Source: a virus
Direction: 5' to 3' (one strand)
Virus record (IMG/VR): IMGVR_UViG_3300042863_001519
Location: 30,805-94,804 of that record
Length of the DNA stretch: 64,000 bases
Of the stretch, positions 14,572-47,019 are shown piece after piece. Both the position numbers and the translations under genes were made by a program. Position 1 is the first letter of the stretch. Each line of letters opens with the position of its first letter. Below the pieces are notes generated by a model. The model searched no databases and was not told the DNA's origin. It worked only from the letters and a program-made list of their open reading frames with translations.

Positions 14572-15381
14572 TTATTTTCCTACTATCTGCATCAACTGAG
14601 GTGTGCCGAAGTAGAGTGGTTGACGAGTCTTTTCCCATGCCCGGATGAACTCAAGCTGCAGGATCTCTTTGGTAATACCTTTGCTACGGATAAGCATCTG
14701 CTCCGTTTTCAAGGCCTCCAGTTCGTTCAGCTTACGTTGCTCAATGATCTGCTGATCCAGTACAGATACGTTGGTATTTACCTCATTACGGCTATCTATC
14801 TTGGCTTTTACCTTATCACTAAAGTCAAGCTGGCAAGAGAATGTAATAAGCTCCAGACCCTTTGCTTCGAATGCATCTGTAACCTTCTTCTGAACATCCT
14901 GCTCAAAACGTAATGAACCACCGTTTGCCATCAGTGTATCAGTAAGATACTTCCGGCTCTCTTCCTTCATGATATCATAGATCTTAGTCTCCAGGATATT
15001 ATCTTCCAAAGCTTTCATAAAGTCATCACCGGCATCCAGATGTTTGTTCTCAAATACTACATCGACTGCACGTTTCTCCATTATCTTGAAAGAGTAGATA
15101 GGTTTTGAGGTAAACTCAGTGTTATCTGCTGCCTTAAGATGAAGAGTCTTATGTGTCTCATCATTGTCATCAAACGATGCACGTTGCTCCCACAGTGGTA
15201 CCTGGAACAGCTCTGTACCGGCACTCATTGTCCACACACGACCTTTCTGCAGACTGAAATCTGCTTTGCCGGCCTTACCGTAATTTTCCATAAGCACACC
15301 GATATAGTTAGGTGCTACACGATCACAAGATGTCATTGTTCCGATCATTGCTACAAGCAGGAAATACATTACTTTTTTCAT
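14572..15381 (-). CDS. SPFH/band-7 domain lipoprotein
   Basis: Lipobox MTSC, RVAPNYIGV start of the SPFH domain, C-terminal coiled coil and IRAW motif. Confidence 0.85.
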   Translation of the reverse strand: MKKVMYFLLVAMIGTMTSCDRVAPNYIGVLMENYGKAGKADFSLQKGRVWTMSAGTELFQVPLWEQRASFDDNDETHKTLHLKAADNTEFTSKPIYSFKIMEKRAVDVVFENKHLDAGDDFMKALEDNILETKIYDIMKEESRKYLTDTLMANGGSLRFEQDVQKKVTDAFEAKGLELITFSCQLDFSDKVKAKIDSRNEVNTNVSVLDQQIIEQRKLNELEALKTEQMLIRSKGITKEILQLEFIRAWEKTRQPLYFGTPQLMQIVGK

Positions 15382-26748: not shown

Positions 26749-28659
26749 TGTGTATATAGTTGCTGTTTTTGTATTTTATTTGATATATTTTCCCATGCTT
26801 GTTCAGGTGTGTTAAATCTTATAGTTATATCGTCCCCGCCTTTTTTATTTTTTATATAATACCTAAAAGCGTGTGTTCCCGATACGTTATAATCCCATTC
26901 GCAATACGCCATAGGATATACTGATAATACCTTTTCTTTGGCTGTCTGTGCCATGTGTTATTTATTTTTAGATAAAAAAAAAGATAGGGTTTATAGGTAC
27001 TCATTACAGATGTTGTTATTCTACTGTTTCTGGTATTACGTAGATAGAGGAGAGTTTGTTGCCTTTGTATACACCAGGATTAGTAGCTTTGTTATTAACA
27101 AAATACACAAAGTTATGTAATATTACCTGAGACTGTATTACAACAGCTTCTTCTGTTGTAGGAGTGTATACTTTGGCATCTCTGATATCGTCAGACATAT
27201 CACAAAATGTACTGCAGTGGTATCCGATAAAGTCATTATCTCTATTGACGTACTTAAATACTTTCTTCATTTTTGTAGTTTTTAGTAGTTGTGAATTATT
27301 CTTTTTGTTCGAAACTTCTTGAAGATATCAAAATGATCAATGTCAATAAAGATTACGTTAAATACAACTAGTGCAGTTGCTATTCCAACTATTGACTTTT
27401 CTTGTTCACTTACAGTATCTACATTTACTATTACTAGCTTTGATAGGTAAACACAAAAGATTGCCAGTAGATTGCAAAACAGTACTAGAAAGTTACTGTC
27501 TCTTGTTACTGTATCTACGTGTTTTTCTGGCAGTATCAACTCTTCTTTTTCCAACTCAAAGTAGTGGTACTTTACAACATCATAATTTGTATAGCTACTA
27601 ATATCTATTGTGAGTGGTGCTGATTCAATAAAGAAACAAATAGCTACATCGGTGTCATACATTTTTACACCCAAAGTAATATTGTTTTTCTCAACAAACT
27701 CTTTGAGTTCTTCATTATTACCAAACCATACAGAACATGTTGTATTTTGGATGTCTTTCAGTTTTATCTTTTTCATTAGATAATTGGTTGTGCAGGTGAA
27801 ACAATAATAACATTGGGGAACTTGTTCTCAAACTCATTCCAGGTACCAACAAAAGTGTATACAATACAACTTTTTGCAACTCTTTTCTTAAACGTGAATA
27901 CAAAGCTCATGATCTGTGTGTTTTTAGAGCGTGAATAATAAAATCGAAAAAAAAGGGGAGTTGAACCCCTTCCCCGGCCTTTAACCGATTTTTTTAGTTT
28001 GCTGATGGATCTACAAGATTATCTTCTGTTTCATCATCGTCATTGTCATTTCCAAATAGTTTTGTTCTCATCTCTTCCAGTTGCTGCAACTCAGCAAACT
28101 GTTCAGTTTTGTATTGGATCATGTATCCCATATAAAGCAATTCTGTTCTACTGATGTCCAATGGCAGCTCTTTCTCACATGCAACAAAGGAGTTAACACG
28201 ATTTACTTTTTCGGTTTTACCAAGTTTTTCAATAGCAGCAATAACAATGCTTACTAATTGATCATTACGTTCTTCAGACATACCAAGACTTGAAGATAAT
28301 GTACTTTCTGTGTTCTGATTTTCCATTTTGTTTGTTTTTGATTGTTAGTATTGTTATTACCAGCTATGATCCTCATGAAAGTAATCATCTTCTGACATCT
28401 GATCATTAAAAAAAGCAGCTATATCCCCATTAAGACTAAACTGATGCCGTTGATGCATATTAGATGTATTTTCCCAATACTGAGCATTTTCAGCTTCTAG
28501 ACAATCATCATGCATAAACATACCATTTGGTCTTTTGTACATTGTACCTGTAGATTCACCACAAGATGCACATTTTACTGTATCACAACCTTGTGTATGT
28601 GTGTATTTCTCAGGTAGTTCTATTTTACCTATTATACGAGGTCCTATTTGATTACTCAT
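26745..28659 (-). CDS. run of small early hypothetical genes (26745..26954, 27016..27270, 27282..27776 with two TM helices, 27994..28326, 28357..28659)
   Basis: Co-oriented ORFs with A-rich leaders and interspersed hairpins. Confidence 0.6.
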
Positions 28660-28973
28660 TGTGTGTTTTGTTTTAGATTGTTACTACAATTATGTTTAGG
28701 AGTGTTAATAAATCAAAGTTTGCTCTCTAGTATAGAGCAACAGGCTGCAAGGCACAAGAATACACCAGCATATAGGAATGTAGTACCATTACTGGTATAC
28801 ATACTACTTACCAAAGCAGCAGCAGCTACTACGGTAAGAAAGACACATAAGAACAAGAGAACAAGATTACGAGTACGTAGCATGATACATAAGCCACTAC
28901 AGTAGGCCCACACTATTTGATTAATACGATTATTGCCAAGAGTACTTCTTTCTACCAAAGTAACTATAGATAG

Positions 28974-29021
28974 AAACAGAAAGAAAGAAAGAAAGAAAGA
29001 AAGATAAAGAACAAGAAAGAA
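28974..29021 (+). repeat. (GAAA)n purine tract
   Basis: gaaagaaagaaagaaagaaagaaagataaagaacaagaaaga. Confidence 0.85.
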
Positions 29022-29185
29022 CCAGTAACAAAAACACTGTGGCAGATGTGCAATAGAGTTCGATACTGATTGTATGGGTAAAAAGAGAGGTTTTAGGGTT
29101 ATTAAGGATAGTGGTTGATATCAATAAGAGGAAAAGGTGAGCAAAATACTGGGTTTTTACCCCTGTTTCACACACATTTACTAAT

Positions 29186-29201
29186 TGTTCCACGTGGAAC
29201 A
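29186..29201. promoter_or_regulatory. parS-type centromere palindrome TGTTCCACGTGGAACA
   Basis: Perfect 16-bp palindrome fitting TGTTNCACGTGNAACA; half-sites at 29164..29171 and 29351..29358. Confidence 0.8.
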
Positions 29202-29617
29202 TTATAAAACTGCATAAACAATCAGTTATACATAACAGATTCTTCTATACGGCTTATTTCATTGATATAACCCTGGGATTTTCGACACTTTATATAACGT
29301 ATAAACTATATGAAGATGTATAACTGCATTGAAAGCTACATGTTATTACTGTGGAACATCATGTATAACTCGTTGATTATCAATACTAATTATAAAACAC
29401 AATTACGTAGCTGAAGTTAAACCGGAAAGGTCAGCTAGATATTAAGTGAGATACACAATACTGACATATCCTTGCAGCACATAGACATATAGTACGTAAC
29501 ACCGACATGGGTCAAAACACCGACATATGGTACGTAGCACAAATACAACATGAGGGAAAACAACACATGGGTATTATCCCATGTGCTGTGTTCATTTCCC
29601 TTTGTTCATGTCATGAG

Positions 29618-30217
29618 CTACTTCTGCTTACGGTTAGCAGCTCCACGAAGTGCATTACTGTTTGGCTTGTTAGCAGCAGCATTGGCAGCAAGATTAACTT
29701 CTTCGATTTCCTCAAAGTTATCATGAGCAAGTAATACGTCTACTGATGTACCAGATGGGTCATAGTACTTTATCTGATAAATTATTTCATCATTAATAGT
29801 ACAAGCTATTCCAGCTAGTTTACAATCATTAGAAGCATACTTCACGTCTTGCTTAATATCTTCAGCATTTGGTGGCTCAAGAGTTTCTTCAATAGCTATA
29901 CGACCAGGTAATATTTGACCTACTTCGTACTTAGCCTCAAAGCGGTCAATACGACCAACAGAGATAGCCCAATGTTCAATCTCAAGGTCAAGACGTTTGT
30001 TCTTGGTTGTCATTGGGGCAACCTGATAGAAACTCACATAACCCATTTTTGGGTTTTTCTTTGAAGGTACAACACATGTATCTTCAATAAGTTCTCCGTC
30101 AATGACTGCTGGTAGAACAATAACAGGGTTAGTGATACCCTTTTTGACAGCCTCTGCCATGATTTCTTGTGCGAATGCACGTTTTAGTTCTGCTGAACTT
30201 TGTGTAATCTTTGCCAT
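29618..30217 (-). CDS. hypothetical early protein
   Basis: 199 aa; downstream of the repeated promoter-like motifs; hairpin at 29565..29587. Confidence 0.75.
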   Translation of the reverse strand: MAKITQSSAELKRAFAQEIMAEAVKKGITNPVIVLPAVIDGELIEDTCVVPSKKNPKMGYVSFYQVAPMTTKNKRLDLEIEHWAISVGRIDRFEAKYEVGQILPGRIAIEETLEPPNAEDIKQDVKYASNDCKLAGIACTINDEIIYQIKYYDPSGTSVDVLLAHDNFEEIEEVNLAANAAANKPNSNALRGAANRKQK

Positions 30218-30290
30218 GTTTTTGATTTTTAGGCGGTTAACAATAAATAATAAAATACATAAAAATGCTGAAGACAGCTCAAGTAAAGAA

Positions 30291-30371
30291 CTCGTGAAAA
30301 TATAATAGTTTCTTGTTACACTTGCTGGACTGTGACAGCAGCAGTATGAGCTCGTGAAAATATAATAGTTT
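30291..30371 (-). promoter_or_regulatory. tandem 21-bp direct repeats, putative early promoters (further copies ~30944..30963 and ~31168..31184)
   Basis: CTCGTGAAAATATAATAGTTT at 30291 and 30351. Confidence 0.6.
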
Positions 30372-30409
30372 TTAAGTTATAACAAGGGTTATTACACCCT
30401 TATTATCTT

Positions 30410-30757
30410 TTAGCATTCAGCACTTTGGTTCTCCAAGCTATTGAGTTCACACTCATTACGAGCATCTTCCATTTCTTTAAACATCTTCTTTAGCCTTATC
30501 TTCTCTTCAAGAATAAAAGCATTTCTAATCTCTTCCTCAAAGCCAGCTTGTTCTCTTTCCTGTTGTATAGCCTCACGTATCAGAACACACGTACTAGCTA
30601 TAGCCATAAAGCTTAGTAATCCTACCCATATCCAGATGTCAACAATAGCATGTTCATACTGCTTCTTACATGTAACATCAATAGCAGCTAAGTTCATTGC
30701 TAGTACAAGCAGTACCAATACAACTGTGTAGGCATTCAAAAACGTACTTCTTTTCAT
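30410..30757 (-). CDS. two-TM membrane protein with coiled-coil tail
   Basis: Two hydrophobic segments followed by a charged helix. Confidence 0.65.
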   Translation of the reverse strand: MKRSTFLNAYTVVLVLLVLAMNLAAIDVTCKKQYEHAIVDIWIWVGLLSFMAIASTCVLIREAIQQEREQAGFEEEIRNAFILEEKIRLKKMFKEMEDARNECELNSLENQSAEC

Positions 30758-30809
30758 TTGTTTTATATATTAAAGGTTAAACAATACTATACTAAAAAGA
30801 AACAGGTGC

Positions 30810-30905
30810 TTATAGTGCACCTGTCTCCATTAACCATATCATCTCTGCAATAGCTACTGCATCAATCTCAGCTTGCTCAAGAGCTATATCTCTATTAGAT
30901 ACCAT
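30810..30905 (-). CDS. 31-aa peptide MVSNRDIALEQAEIDAVAIAEMIWLMETGAL (not in ORF track)
   Basis: Lies between a promoter-like repeat and a terminator hairpin. Confidence 0.4.
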   Translation of the reverse strand: MVSNRDIALEQAEIDAVAIAEMIWLMETGAL

Positions 30906-31252
30906 AGTAAAGCCACTTTTTATTGGGCTATAGCATGGCTATAGTAAAATATAATAGTTTCTTTGTTAAAAAGAATAGAGAACATTACTGTTCTCTATCC
31001 CTAACTCTTGGTAGGAAGCCACTCCTTGTTTACGGTTCTTACATCTCCAAGGCAAGTAAGGAGAACGCCTCTGATTTAAAAAACATGACGTTTCAGTTTT
31101 TATGAGTTATACACAAACTCTCATCTGAAACTTGGCTAGGGGGATACCCCTGCTACAGTAGTGAAGCCGTGCAATATTATAGTTAGGCATATACCTTCTC
31201 TAATATACAACTAGCTATTTGATACAGGTACCGAAAAGGAGGGTCAAAATTT

Positions 31253-31903
31253 TTAGAAAAAGTTTTTTTGAATACCATACTCTGCCATTAGTAAAGCTAT
31301 TTCTCTCTCAAGGTGGTAGTAGTGTTGTTTGTTGTATCTTGTTAAGGGTATTCCGTTGTTGCTGCAGAACTTATCTTTTAGGGTGTCTTTTTCTTTTTGC
31401 TGTGGTGTGCAGTGGGAGCTTTGGCCATCATATTCTATCATGTGTATCCCTTTAGAAGTTAGTATCAGAAAGTCGTACCTGGCATATCCATACTCAGTAA
31501 ACTTTAATCCTTCAAATGCTACCTCCCGGTACCAATCTACTTTGTACTTGTTCAACTCCTGTACTATTAACTTCTCTGCTTCACTAATCTGATTCTGTGC
31601 ACGATCAACTACAAACCAATCTAATGGTCTCTTTACAGAACCTGCAACATTCCTGATTGTAGTACCAGCACCCTTTCTTTTAGCACCAAAGTATTTTCTT
31701 GCTTTTGCCATCTTTTTTTCTTTCTCTTTCTCTTTCTCCTTTTCCTTCTCGTGCCGGTTAGAAATTGTAACTAACTCCTCATGCTTTTTCTGAGTAATAC
31801 TTTTAGATGAATCAAATCTACTACTAGCAATACTGCCATTAGAATTACTCAACAGATAAAGAACAATAATACATATTACAAGCACAGTTATCACAAAAGC
31901 CAT
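31253..31903 (-). CDS. DUF559/Vsr-like endonuclease with N-terminal TM helix
   Basis: SEAE...YDFLI...IEYDGQSSH...D..KD.FC..NGIPLTR; TACCTTTG at 31919..31926. Confidence 0.75.
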   Translation of the reverse strand: MAFVITVLVICIIVLYLLSNSNGSIASSRFDSSKSITQKKHEELVTISNRHEKEKEKEKEKEKKMAKARKYFGAKRKGAGTTIRNVAGSVKRPLDWFVVDRAQNQISEAEKLIVQELNKYKVDWYREVAFEGLKFTEYGYARYDFLILTSKGIHMIEYDGQSSHCTPQQKEKDTLKDKFCSNNGIPLTRYNKQHYYHLEREIALLMAEYGIQKNFF

Positions 31904-32004: not shown

Positions 32005-32427
32005 ATGGAAGAGAAAAAACTTAAAAGGCCGACAGTAAGAGAACAGTTTGCAACAGGGCCTGAGCAAACAGAACAGAAAGCTCCAATGAGCAAAGAAGAC
32101 ACGATAAAGTTCTATGAGGAGAACTTACCTTTTATGAGAATGCAGGATGAGTATGAGAAACTTGCATTTGGATTTGCAGAAAGGAAAGTTGAACATCTTG
32201 AACTACAGGTTCGTGAACTAGAAGCTATTGGTTATTTGAGTCAGTGGAAAGCTGGTCAAGACGAAGCTAAAAGAAGACAAGAGCACGAAGAAAAAATGAA
32301 AGCTGAGTGGGATGCTATGACACCTGAGCAACAAGATGAATATCGTAAACAAGCCGAAGCTAATCTTGCAGAGATGCAGAACCAAGCAACAGAAGCAGCA
32401 AAGTTATCTAATCAAACAATAAGCTAG
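32005..32427 (+). CDS. coiled-coil hypothetical protein (first gene of the plus arm)
   Basis: 140-aa E/Q/K-rich ORF. Confidence 0.75.
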   Translation: MEEKKLKRPTVREQFATGPEQTEQKAPMSKEDTIKFYEENLPFMRMQDEYEKLAFGFAERKVEHLELQVRELEAIGYLSQWKAGQDEAKRRQEHEEKMKAEWDAMTPEQQDEYRKQAEANLAEMQNQATEAAKLSNQTIS

Positions 32428-33904: not shown

Positions 33905-34288
33905 ATGGACAATATCATAATACCAATGCAGGAAATGACTTCTAATAAGAAGAAGAAACCAACTCTTGAAGAAGCACAGATGTTTCAAATACCATTTGAT
34001 GCATTGCTTAATACAGTAATTGTAGTGCACATTGCAGAGCCGGAGAAAGAAAAAAAAGGTGGTATTTATGTACCTGATTACATCAAGGAGCAAATGGCAA
34101 TAACTGAGAACATGCTTGTCAAAGCTCTTGTAAAATCTGTAGGTACTAATAAAGAAGGTCGGACTCCTGTAGTAGCAGTAGGTGATGTGGTATATGTTTA
34201 CCCTGGTGGCTATGGTGCAAAAATATTTGATGGGGAAGCTGAGTATCTTATATACGCAGAATTGGACATGATTGTTAAACTGAAATAA
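33905..34288 (+). CDS. groES: GroES-like co-chaperonin
   Basis: KGGIYVP mobile loop, VKSVG, VAVGDVV, EYLIYAELDMI. Confidence 0.85.
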   Translation: MDNIIIPMQEMTSNKKKKPTLEEAQMFQIPFDALLNTVIVVHIAEPEKEKKGGIYVPDYIKEQMAITENMLVKALVKSVGTNKEGRTPVVAVGDVVYVYPGGYGAKIFDGEAEYLIYAELDMIVKLK

Positions 34289-45756: not shown

Positions 45757-47019
45757 ATGCAAACAGTAGTAACTAATGAGACTGTAGATCTCGATAAGTT
45801 GTTTCCGGGTATAGATACATCAGATGTACTTACATCCAAAGTGCCAAATATCCTGAGTAATGATACTGACATGTCATTTTTAGATAAACCAGCTTTAACA
45901 AAAGAAAATGAATCTAATACAGATTCAAATTCTGAAAATGAAACTGCTAAAGTAAAACCAATTGTCAATGAAACAGAAGCTAACAAGATTCTGGATTTGA
46001 TAGGCAAAGAAGATGATGAAGATGAGGATGGTCAGGGTTATACAAATGCAGGTACAGGAAGACCAAAATCAGATAAGAATGCTTTGGCAGGATATCTGAA
46101 ACAAAAAATAGAGGCAGGTGATTTTTCTGCTTTTGAAGATTGGGATGAAAAGAAACAAACTCTTGATGAGTATCTTTCAAAACAACCTGAGAAAGTATTA
46201 CATCAAATGCTTGATGCAAACTGGGAGTCTAAGGAGAGAGATCTTCTTGAGCGTACTCCAAAAGAGTTCTTTGAAGCGTTACCTGAAGAGTTGCAATATG
46301 CTGCAAGGTATGCAATGGAAGGTGGACAGGATATGAAAAGTCTGTTTGCTGCACTTGCCCGGGTTGAACAGGTAAGAGAGTTAGATCCTGAAGATGAAGA
46401 TGGTCAAGTTATTATAGCCAGAAATTATCTACAGGCAACAAACTTTGGTACATCTGATGAGATTGAGGATGAAATATCTAACTGGAAAGAAAACAATCGT
46501 CTTGAGAAAAAAGCTAAAGACTTTAAACCAAAGTTAGATCTAATGCAGAAACAGCAGGTTGAATATCAACTTGCACAACAAGCAGAGTTTAACAATCAAC
46601 AAAGACAAGCTGCTCAGACGTATGTAGCAAATGTTGGACAAGCTCTTCAAAAAGGTGACTTAAATGGTTTGAAGCTTGATAGAAAAACACAAGCTATGTT
46701 GTATGAAGGTTTAACCAATGTTGCCTACCCAAGTGCATCGGGCAAAGCAACAAACCTTTTGGGACATATGTTAGACCGTATCCAGTATGTTGAACCAAAC
46801 TTTGAATTACTTGCAGAAGTAACTTATATGCTAAGTGATCCGGAAGGATATAGAAACAGTATAAGACAACAAGGTAAAAATGTTGCAGTGAATGAAACAG
46901 TAAAAAAGTTAAAAACAGAACAGTTACAAAACAATGGTACTTATAGTGTTGATGATGTTGAGGAAAATAAATCAACTAAGAAAAAACTCTTTAAGCCAAA
47001 AAACATGTTTGAGAAGTAA
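45757..47019 (+). CDS. acidic capsid-assembly/scaffold-like protein
   Basis: Acidic helical protein between portal and capsid genes. Confidence 0.6.
   Translation: MQTVVTNETVDLDKLFPGIDTSDVLTSKVPNILSNDTDMSFLDKPALTKENESNTDSNSENETAKVKPIVNETEANKILDLIGKEDDEDEDGQGYTNAGTGRPKSDKNALAGYLKQKIEAGDFSAFEDWDEKKQTLDEYLSKQPEKVLHQMLDANWESKERDLLERTPKEFFEALPEELQYAARYAMEGGQDMKSLFAALARVEQVRELDPEDEDGQVIIARNYLQATNFGTSDEIEDEISNWKENNRLEKKAKDFKPKLDLMQKQQVEYQLAQQAEFNNQQRQAAQTYVANVGQALQKGDLNGLKLDRKTQAMLYEGLTNVAYPSASGKATNLLGHMLDRIQYVEPNFELLAEVTYMLSDPEGYRNSIRQQGKNVAVNETVKKLKTEQLQNNGTYSVDDVEENKSTKKKLFKPKNMFEK

Follow-up and report, generated by a model that had tools for sequence, protein, structure and literature searches.

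The virulent Bacillus phages phi29 and Nf carry host-chromosome parS sites on genomes without a ParB gene, and are thought to ride on host segregation, as summarised in PMC2731898. The same source, citing Meijer et al. 2005, describes five host parS sites in phi29 that are used with Spo0J, with a genome trapped in the spore as the payoff. Phage-plasmid modules such as P1 ParAB-parS (PMC11652158) combine a centromere-like site on the phage genome with their own ParA and ParB. KorB/OB and phage orphan-ParB systems use palindromic ParB-family-type sites in non-coding DNA, and such systems need an element-encoded ParB or KorB and many dispersed copies. On the chromosome of P. aeruginosa, parS2/parS3 and parS1/parS4 belong to the highest-affinity classes, one site is enough for segregation and plasmid stabilisation, and binding is weaker where just one arm of a site is intact (PMC4368675). 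In this species GTTTCAC heptamers serve as half-sites for ParB, and some ParBs bind both GTTCCAC and GTTTCAC half-sites (PMC7022226). It needs explaining how crAss-like phages remain abundant alongside their hosts when no lysogeny genes can be recognised in them. For the prototypic crAssphage, a phage-plasmid lifestyle with RepL has been put forward, with no partition system named (PMC10983915). The literature that we searched contained nothing linking parS to crAss-like phages.

Here we describe a parS palindrome in a window of 64,000 nucleotides, bases 30805-94804 of a 94,804-bp IMG/VR virus record estimated to be 74% complete. Like phi29 and Nf, this phage carries a host-type chromosomal parS and no ParB. 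Unlike phi29, it is known from its sequence alone, has one full site in 94.8 kb plus half-sites instead of five sites, and belongs to a different phage order with presumed non-sporulating, Bacteroidota-type hosts. The 16 bp are identical to chromosomal parS of P. aeruginosa (parS2/parS3) and Bacteroidota, with GTTCCAC/GTTTCAC half-sites nearby as on chromosomes (PMC4368675, PMC7022226), but the site is phage-borne and single, with no origin-proximal cluster and no cognate parAB operon in cis. It resembles the P1-type modules in being a centromere-like site on a phage genome that could support plasmid-like inheritance, and differs from them in parS type and in having no ParA or ParB of its own. 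A self-encoded ParABS or phage-plasmid partition module was rejected, as neither protein was found beside the site. A KorB/OB-like dispersed operator system was likewise rejected on the single palindrome copy and the absence of a ParB/KorB-type protein, although the palindromic site in non-coding DNA is shared with such systems. The principle is already known from phi29; what differs here is the phage order, the host phylum, the absence of sporulation, the single site and the turnover of its position within a clade.

The TerL, portal and major capsid proteins of the phage match PHROG families for those functions, and the best named matches of TerL are all Crassvirales, at an identity of only 21-26%. 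With crAss-type TerL, portal and major capsid proteins and an architecture of ~100 kb, the phage is, by its gene content, a distant environmental crAss-like lineage. From the crAss-like affinities of TerL and portal, we infer that its host belongs to the Bacteroidota, the phylum infected by cultured Crassvirales and by the named relatives in the TerL comparison. The phage has genes for a DNA polymerase of its own, a primase-like protein and a DnaB split by an intein, and with its own polymerase, primase and helicase it looks lytic. RepL, integrase-type and partition genes were searched for in the record (~74% of the genome) and none was found, nor was any sign of a carrier or plasmid state. 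The stretch is present in contigs of many lake-water metagenomes from several studies, and a megablast search of positions 28000-31000 against GenBank phages gave zero matches.

The palindrome and its intergenic block

The perfect 16-bp palindrome TGTTCCACGTGGAACA is located at 29186..29201 (no strand assigned). It is present once, as the sole match at up to two mismatches in the whole 94,804-bp record. It agrees with the chromosomal-type parS consensus TGTTNCACGTGNAACA at 16 of 16 positions, and the same spelling is found at chromosomal sites of Bacteroidota and in parS2/parS3 of P. aeruginosa (PMC4368675). An earlier, sequence-only reading of the window had reported a perfect chromosomal-type parS in a non-coding block here, flanked by half-sites at 29164 and 29351, and all of this is borne out. 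The block spans 28886..29617 (~730 bp) between minus-strand early genes. The only open reading frame across the site (28930-29202, minus strand) is not a conserved frame, because the relative G002 has an 8-nt indel there.

The first half-site, TGTTTCAC (29164..29171, plus strand), lies within a conserved motif, CT.TTTCACACAC, which is kept in G002 and reads TCTTTCAC in the relatives L168 and L291. The conserved part is TTTCACACA(C), which is not strictly the half-site. The second half-site, GTGGAACA (TGTTCCAC on the minus strand), is found at 29351..29358 on the minus strand. It is the only TGTTCCAC octamer of the window outside the palindrome; counting both strands, the octamer has three copies in the 64-kb window, all inside the parS block. 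This half-site is kept in the closest relative, L291, and not in G002 or L169.

The upstream neighbour (29618..30217, minus strand) encodes a 199-aa protein of no family, for which the related-locus search gave no relatives and for which no homologue was found at the syntenic place. Just past its stop codon, a terminator-like hairpin is located at 29556..29593 (minus strand), with equivalents in G001 and G002. The downstream neighbour (28713..28885, minus strand) encodes a hydrophobic mini-protein of ~57 aa, followed by a second terminator-like hairpin at 28740-28720 as read directly from the DNA; G001 has a similar small membrane open reading frame at this place. A sigma-70 promoter scan gave background level only, Rfam gave nothing near threshold, and ARAGORN found no tRNA. 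We also considered the palindrome as an RNA hairpin or terminator and rejected this, as the predicted fold comes from the palindrome alone, its extension lacks conservation and a U-run is missing.

The same block contains a (GAAA)n-type microsatellite at 28968-29011, and contigs from other lake runs break or skip at 28964-29020, so its length probably varies in the population. At 29479-29540, after the hairpin of the upstream gene, a 24-nt sequence is directly repeated (83% identity, 38 nt apart), and there are two exact copies of AACACCGACAT; these repeats are not conserved in relatives.

The spelling of the palindrome was compared with chromosomal sites at the level of the presumed host phylum. 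Exact TGTT[CT]CACGTG[GA]AACA occurs in 107 of 151 Bacteroidota genomes, as one to five clustered sites each, and the exact spelling of the window was found in Flavobacterium soli, Chitinophaga, Bacteroides and a Daejeonella MAG. One canonical ParB each was found in four of five tested genomes. The phage itself gave no match to ParB_N, ParB-HTH or ParA (AAA_31) at E<=1 in six frames of the record, no ParB-like protein in Pfam scans of 40 window open reading frames, and no ParB-, KorB- or Noc-type HTH in the record. Nor was ParB_N found in eight relatives of the clade, namely the complete genome G001 and G002, G003, G161, G162, G165, G172 and G212. The sequence-only reading had mentioned a ParB-like gene in this phage, and our searches found no such gene; its remark that no parA is visible agrees with the empty AAA_31 search. 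As the phage has neither ParA nor ParB, a host protein is the likelier binder of the site, which that reading had also proposed.

The locus in related phages

Relatives were collected from IMG/VR and JGI metagenomes by means of TerL and a conserved 140-aa protein beside the strand switch. The syntenic region is present in five of them: L291, G002, L169, L168 and G001. The contig L292 ends ahead of the expected block and is outside the site comparison. In the five syntenic relatives, the genes at 26-31 kb of the window have no detectable homologues and both flanks are without nucleotide similarity. Despite these unrelated neighbours, the core of the non-coding block (~29160-29390) is still alignable in all five.

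Within this core, the fate of the palindrome differs between relatives. L291 has a perfect site (16/16) and also keeps the 29351 half-site. G002 has TGTTCCACGTGGAACC (15/16), which is the spelling of P. aeruginosa parS1/parS4 (PMC4368675). L169 has TGTTCCACGTGTCACA (14/16), with a new GTTCCAC 20 nt further on. In L168 the site is cleanly deleted, and in G001, whose 125-kb genome is complete and has terminal repeats, the site is replaced by a 163-aa gene and no parS is found genome-wide. In a marker tree of the 140-aa protein, rooted at the midpoint only, the carriers span the deepest split, so the simplest history would be an ancestral site lost at least twice. Other lake runs are polymorphic at this locus: one variant has diverged flanks with an intact site, and another, from run X13, has TGTTTCAC joined directly to the downstream motif, with the site absent. 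Given the losses in L168, G001 and the X13 variant, the site is, by these comparisons, dispensable. Among 16-nt windows of the block in the four carriers, the parS window ranks 1 of 306 for conservation, a rank that is conditioned on the sequences having been picked for carrying the site.

The strand switch beside which the 140-aa protein is encoded is flanked by genes at 31253-31903 and 32005-32427, which encode a membrane-anchored DUF2726/restriction-endonuclease-like protein and the charged 140-aa protein. Both are conserved, the latter at 68-86% identity in relatives, and going outwards from a hypervariable early region, they are the first genes on each side to be conserved.

The block core also contains repeated motifs. 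CAGTTATACATAAC (29223..29236, no strand assigned) is a near-palindrome of the form GTTAT-NN-ATAAC, and its core CAGTTAT..AT.A is invariant in the five-way alignment of the window, G002, L169, L168 and G001; L291 keeps it too. ATGTATAACTG(CATTGA) (29316..29332, plus strand) likewise has an invariant core, ATGTATAACTG, in this alignment, and L291 keeps this core. The 29316 motif runs in the opposite orientation to 29223-29233, and there is a third copy at 29361-29370. ATGTATAAC has six copies in the 94.8-kb record, three of them inside a 150-nt span of the block (29223-29370); of the three ATGTATAAC(T) copies in the block, one is inverted and forms the near-palindrome GTTATACATAAC. An IMG/VR scan for AACTATAT....ATGTATAACTG gave, besides G001 and G002, just 15 matches, to unrelated coding sequence.

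The ATGTATAAC-type copies look like iterons. The parS site is 2.7 kb from the strand switch and the GC-skew minimum, a skew that is confounded by gene orientation. The DnaA-box scan found no box in the block, so a putative origin-proximal position is judged from the iteron-like repeats only. One protein of the complete relative G001 belongs to the RepL family (27 bits, which exceeds the Pfam cut-off). The 163-aa gene of G001 is weakly RepL-like (15 bits, E=0.014) and lies within the conserved block at the place where the others have parS, upstream of the invariant ATGTATAAC-type motifs. This hints that the block may be a plasmid-like origin. No homologue was found in the record of the window. 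The two RepL-type loci of G001 are L331:1294-1785 (G001:C1:109176-109667) and L330:1465-1932 (G001:C1:28285-28752).

These motifs bear on an alternative in which the palindrome is an operator or origin element for a phage-encoded (or other host) DNA-binding protein, and its likeness to parS is coincidental. The block does contain several conserved elements, and in the five-way alignment the ATGTATAAC-type motifs are better conserved than parS; two of them, in contrast to parS, have a core that is invariant in the relatives examined. No family could be assigned to most of the nearby phage proteins, which leaves room for a novel binder, and the weak RepL-like gene of G001 sits at the same place. 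On the other hand, no neighbouring gene co-occurs with the site in the syntenic relatives, no HTH of the ParB, KorB or Noc type was found, and a 16/16 coincidence with the host centromere has a chance of ~1e-5 per genome. Together with the placements at other loci described below, this makes a coincidental operator improbable.

Other placements and occurrence across IMG/VR

Two further members of the TerL clade carry the site at positions unrelated to the locus described above. In G172 (85 kb, TerL 46% identical), exact TGTTTCACGTGGAACA is found in a different intergenic spot, between the stop codon of a small gene and its terminator, 15.7 kb upstream of TerL. In G212 (TerL E=2e-202), the exact spelling of the window is found within the gene that follows the portal gene, at L345:1501-1516 (G212:C1:14961-14976), where it is in frame and encodes DVPRGT. 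This gene encodes a scaffold-like protein of 423 aa, homologous to the product of 45757-47019 in the window. The site falls in a variable acidic linker, at which the window homologue has unrelated sequence. A one-mismatch match in G186 lies inside TerL and was treated as chance.

Thus the site has three placements in one clade, and it is retained or re-acquired in relatives. Its variation is confined to positions where bacterial parS varies (C/T at position 5, terminal A/C), and the variable positions of G172 and G212 all show the C/T and G/A alternatives that host sites also use. The Daejeonella MAG has the G172 spelling 54 nt from the window spelling. This turnover of placement combined with host-like variation points to selection on a ParB site as such, rather than on a local operator or promoter element, and is hard to reconcile with a local operator.

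The chance of finding the site was estimated in several ways. From base composition, the exact 16-mer is expected at ~1.1e-10 per position, or ~7e-6 per 64 kb, close to the ~1e-5 that the sequence-only reading had given. The find comes from ~250,000 scanned windows, in which one or two chance finds are expected, so the statistic of a single window is insufficient by itself. The empirical controls are decisive. A reversed palindrome of the same composition was found in 3 IMG/VR contigs (loci L342-L344), against at least 120 contigs for the parS 16-mer (L002-L121), an enrichment of at least 40-fold. The reversed 14-base pattern was found in none of 151 Bacteroidota genomes, and, with one mismatch allowed, the reversed pattern was also missing from 39 crAss-like records, either related or reference. 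The occurrence of parS is not due to chance.

These counts also weigh on the notion that the site is functionless, having arisen by chance or come in by recombination as a neutral piece of host DNA that is drifting to loss. The losses in G001, L168 and the X13 variant and the degenerate 14/16 site of L169 fit such drift, and with so many windows scanned a chance find somewhere was to be expected. The enrichment over the control across IMG/VR argues against it, as do the retention of the site across lineages whose flanking genes diverged beyond recognition and the two further placements in the clade. We therefore regard a functionless site as very improbable.

Outside this clade, a search of ten complete Crassvirales reference genomes gave no site, with up to one mismatch allowed. 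These gut references comprise Suoliviridae and Steigviridae, including a Bacteroides isolate phage and an Azobacteroides phage. Since the site is absent from all ten, it is, as far as these genomes go, a lineage-level accessory and no crAss hallmark. The scan of crAss-like genomes for parS that the sequence-only reading had suggested thus had a divided outcome: the site recurs in conserved non-coding DNA of relatives, but it is not a general feature, with none of the ten references carrying it and two of the five syntenic relatives having lost it. Among the IMG/VR matches listed, 44 of the 46 larger carriers are without ParB_N, as are 14 of the 15 near-complete ones, and only one of these 46 belongs to the TerL clade of this phage. 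Host-type parS without a partner ParB gene looks widespread in diverse phages.

Possible roles of the site

We consider it most likely that the phage makes use of host ParB in the way known from Bacillus phage phi29. Once the genome is injected, host ParB dimers with bound CTP would nucleate at its parS and close into clamps, which would slide onto flanking phage DNA. Each genome copy would gain a partition complex that is not encoded by the phage itself, and ParA-driven positioning and segregation could bring phage genomes into both daughter cells. SMC loading may be included, and the phase concerned would be a non-lytic carrier or plasmid-like one. The position of the site beside the iteron-like conserved block would mimic the origin-proximal parS of chromosomes.

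We assign a probability of roughly 0.45 to this reading as a whole, in which the palindrome is a working loading site for host chromosomal ParB with segregation or positioning as the payoff. Its parts differ in strength. That ParB binds the site and that binding serves some selected function is probable. Counted against the reading are the presence of one full site only, compared with five in phi29, the lack of the site in two of the five syntenic relatives, in a population variant and in the ten reference genomes, and the absence of DnaA boxes and of any sign of a carrier or plasmid state. Segregation or positioning as the main payoff is favoured by the iteron-like neighbours, the phi29 precedent (PMC2731898) and the phage-plasmid proposal for crAssphage; it seems to us to fall somewhat short of an even chance.

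Host ParB might also bind the site for a different payoff, namely host takeover or regulation instead of phage segregation. In the takeover version, many phage copies would load sliding ParB clamps and drain ParB, and with it SMC loading, from the host origin. In the regulation version, spreading of ParB would silence adjacent early promoters at a set time. All evidence for ParB binding applies equally here, and the phage, with its own polymerase, primase and helicase, looks lytic. The site of the window has a terminator-like hairpin on one side and the next early gene on the other, in a conserved block of regulatory appearance, and in P. aeruginosa parS-bound ParB represses neighbouring promoters, while excess ParB blocks replication of a parS plasmid (PMC4368675; PMC7022226). 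The site of G212 is in a late structural gene and that of G172 in a 3' untranslated spot, which argues against promoter-specific silencing; titration needs no particular placement. Taken together, we consider takeover or regulation rather unlikely.

If the phage does borrow host ParB for segregation, a host centromere would supply the missing partition function for 16 bp. The IMG/VR counts (at least 120 against 3) suggest that the trick reaches beyond phi29 and crAss-like phages. Orphan host-type parS may then be a widespread, essentially undescribed phage strategy, a host-powered centromere that gives lytic-looking phages plasmid-like or carrier-state inheritance, including lake crAss-like lineages without lysogeny or partition genes. 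We put this forward tentatively and with considerable doubt. If true, parS sites on phage genomes could mark non-lytic persistence or interference with host chromosome segregation.

Elsewhere in the window, the phage encodes a Cpn10/GroES-like protein (33905-34288, E=7e-9) and an SPFH/Band-7 protein (14572-15381, E=1e-5).
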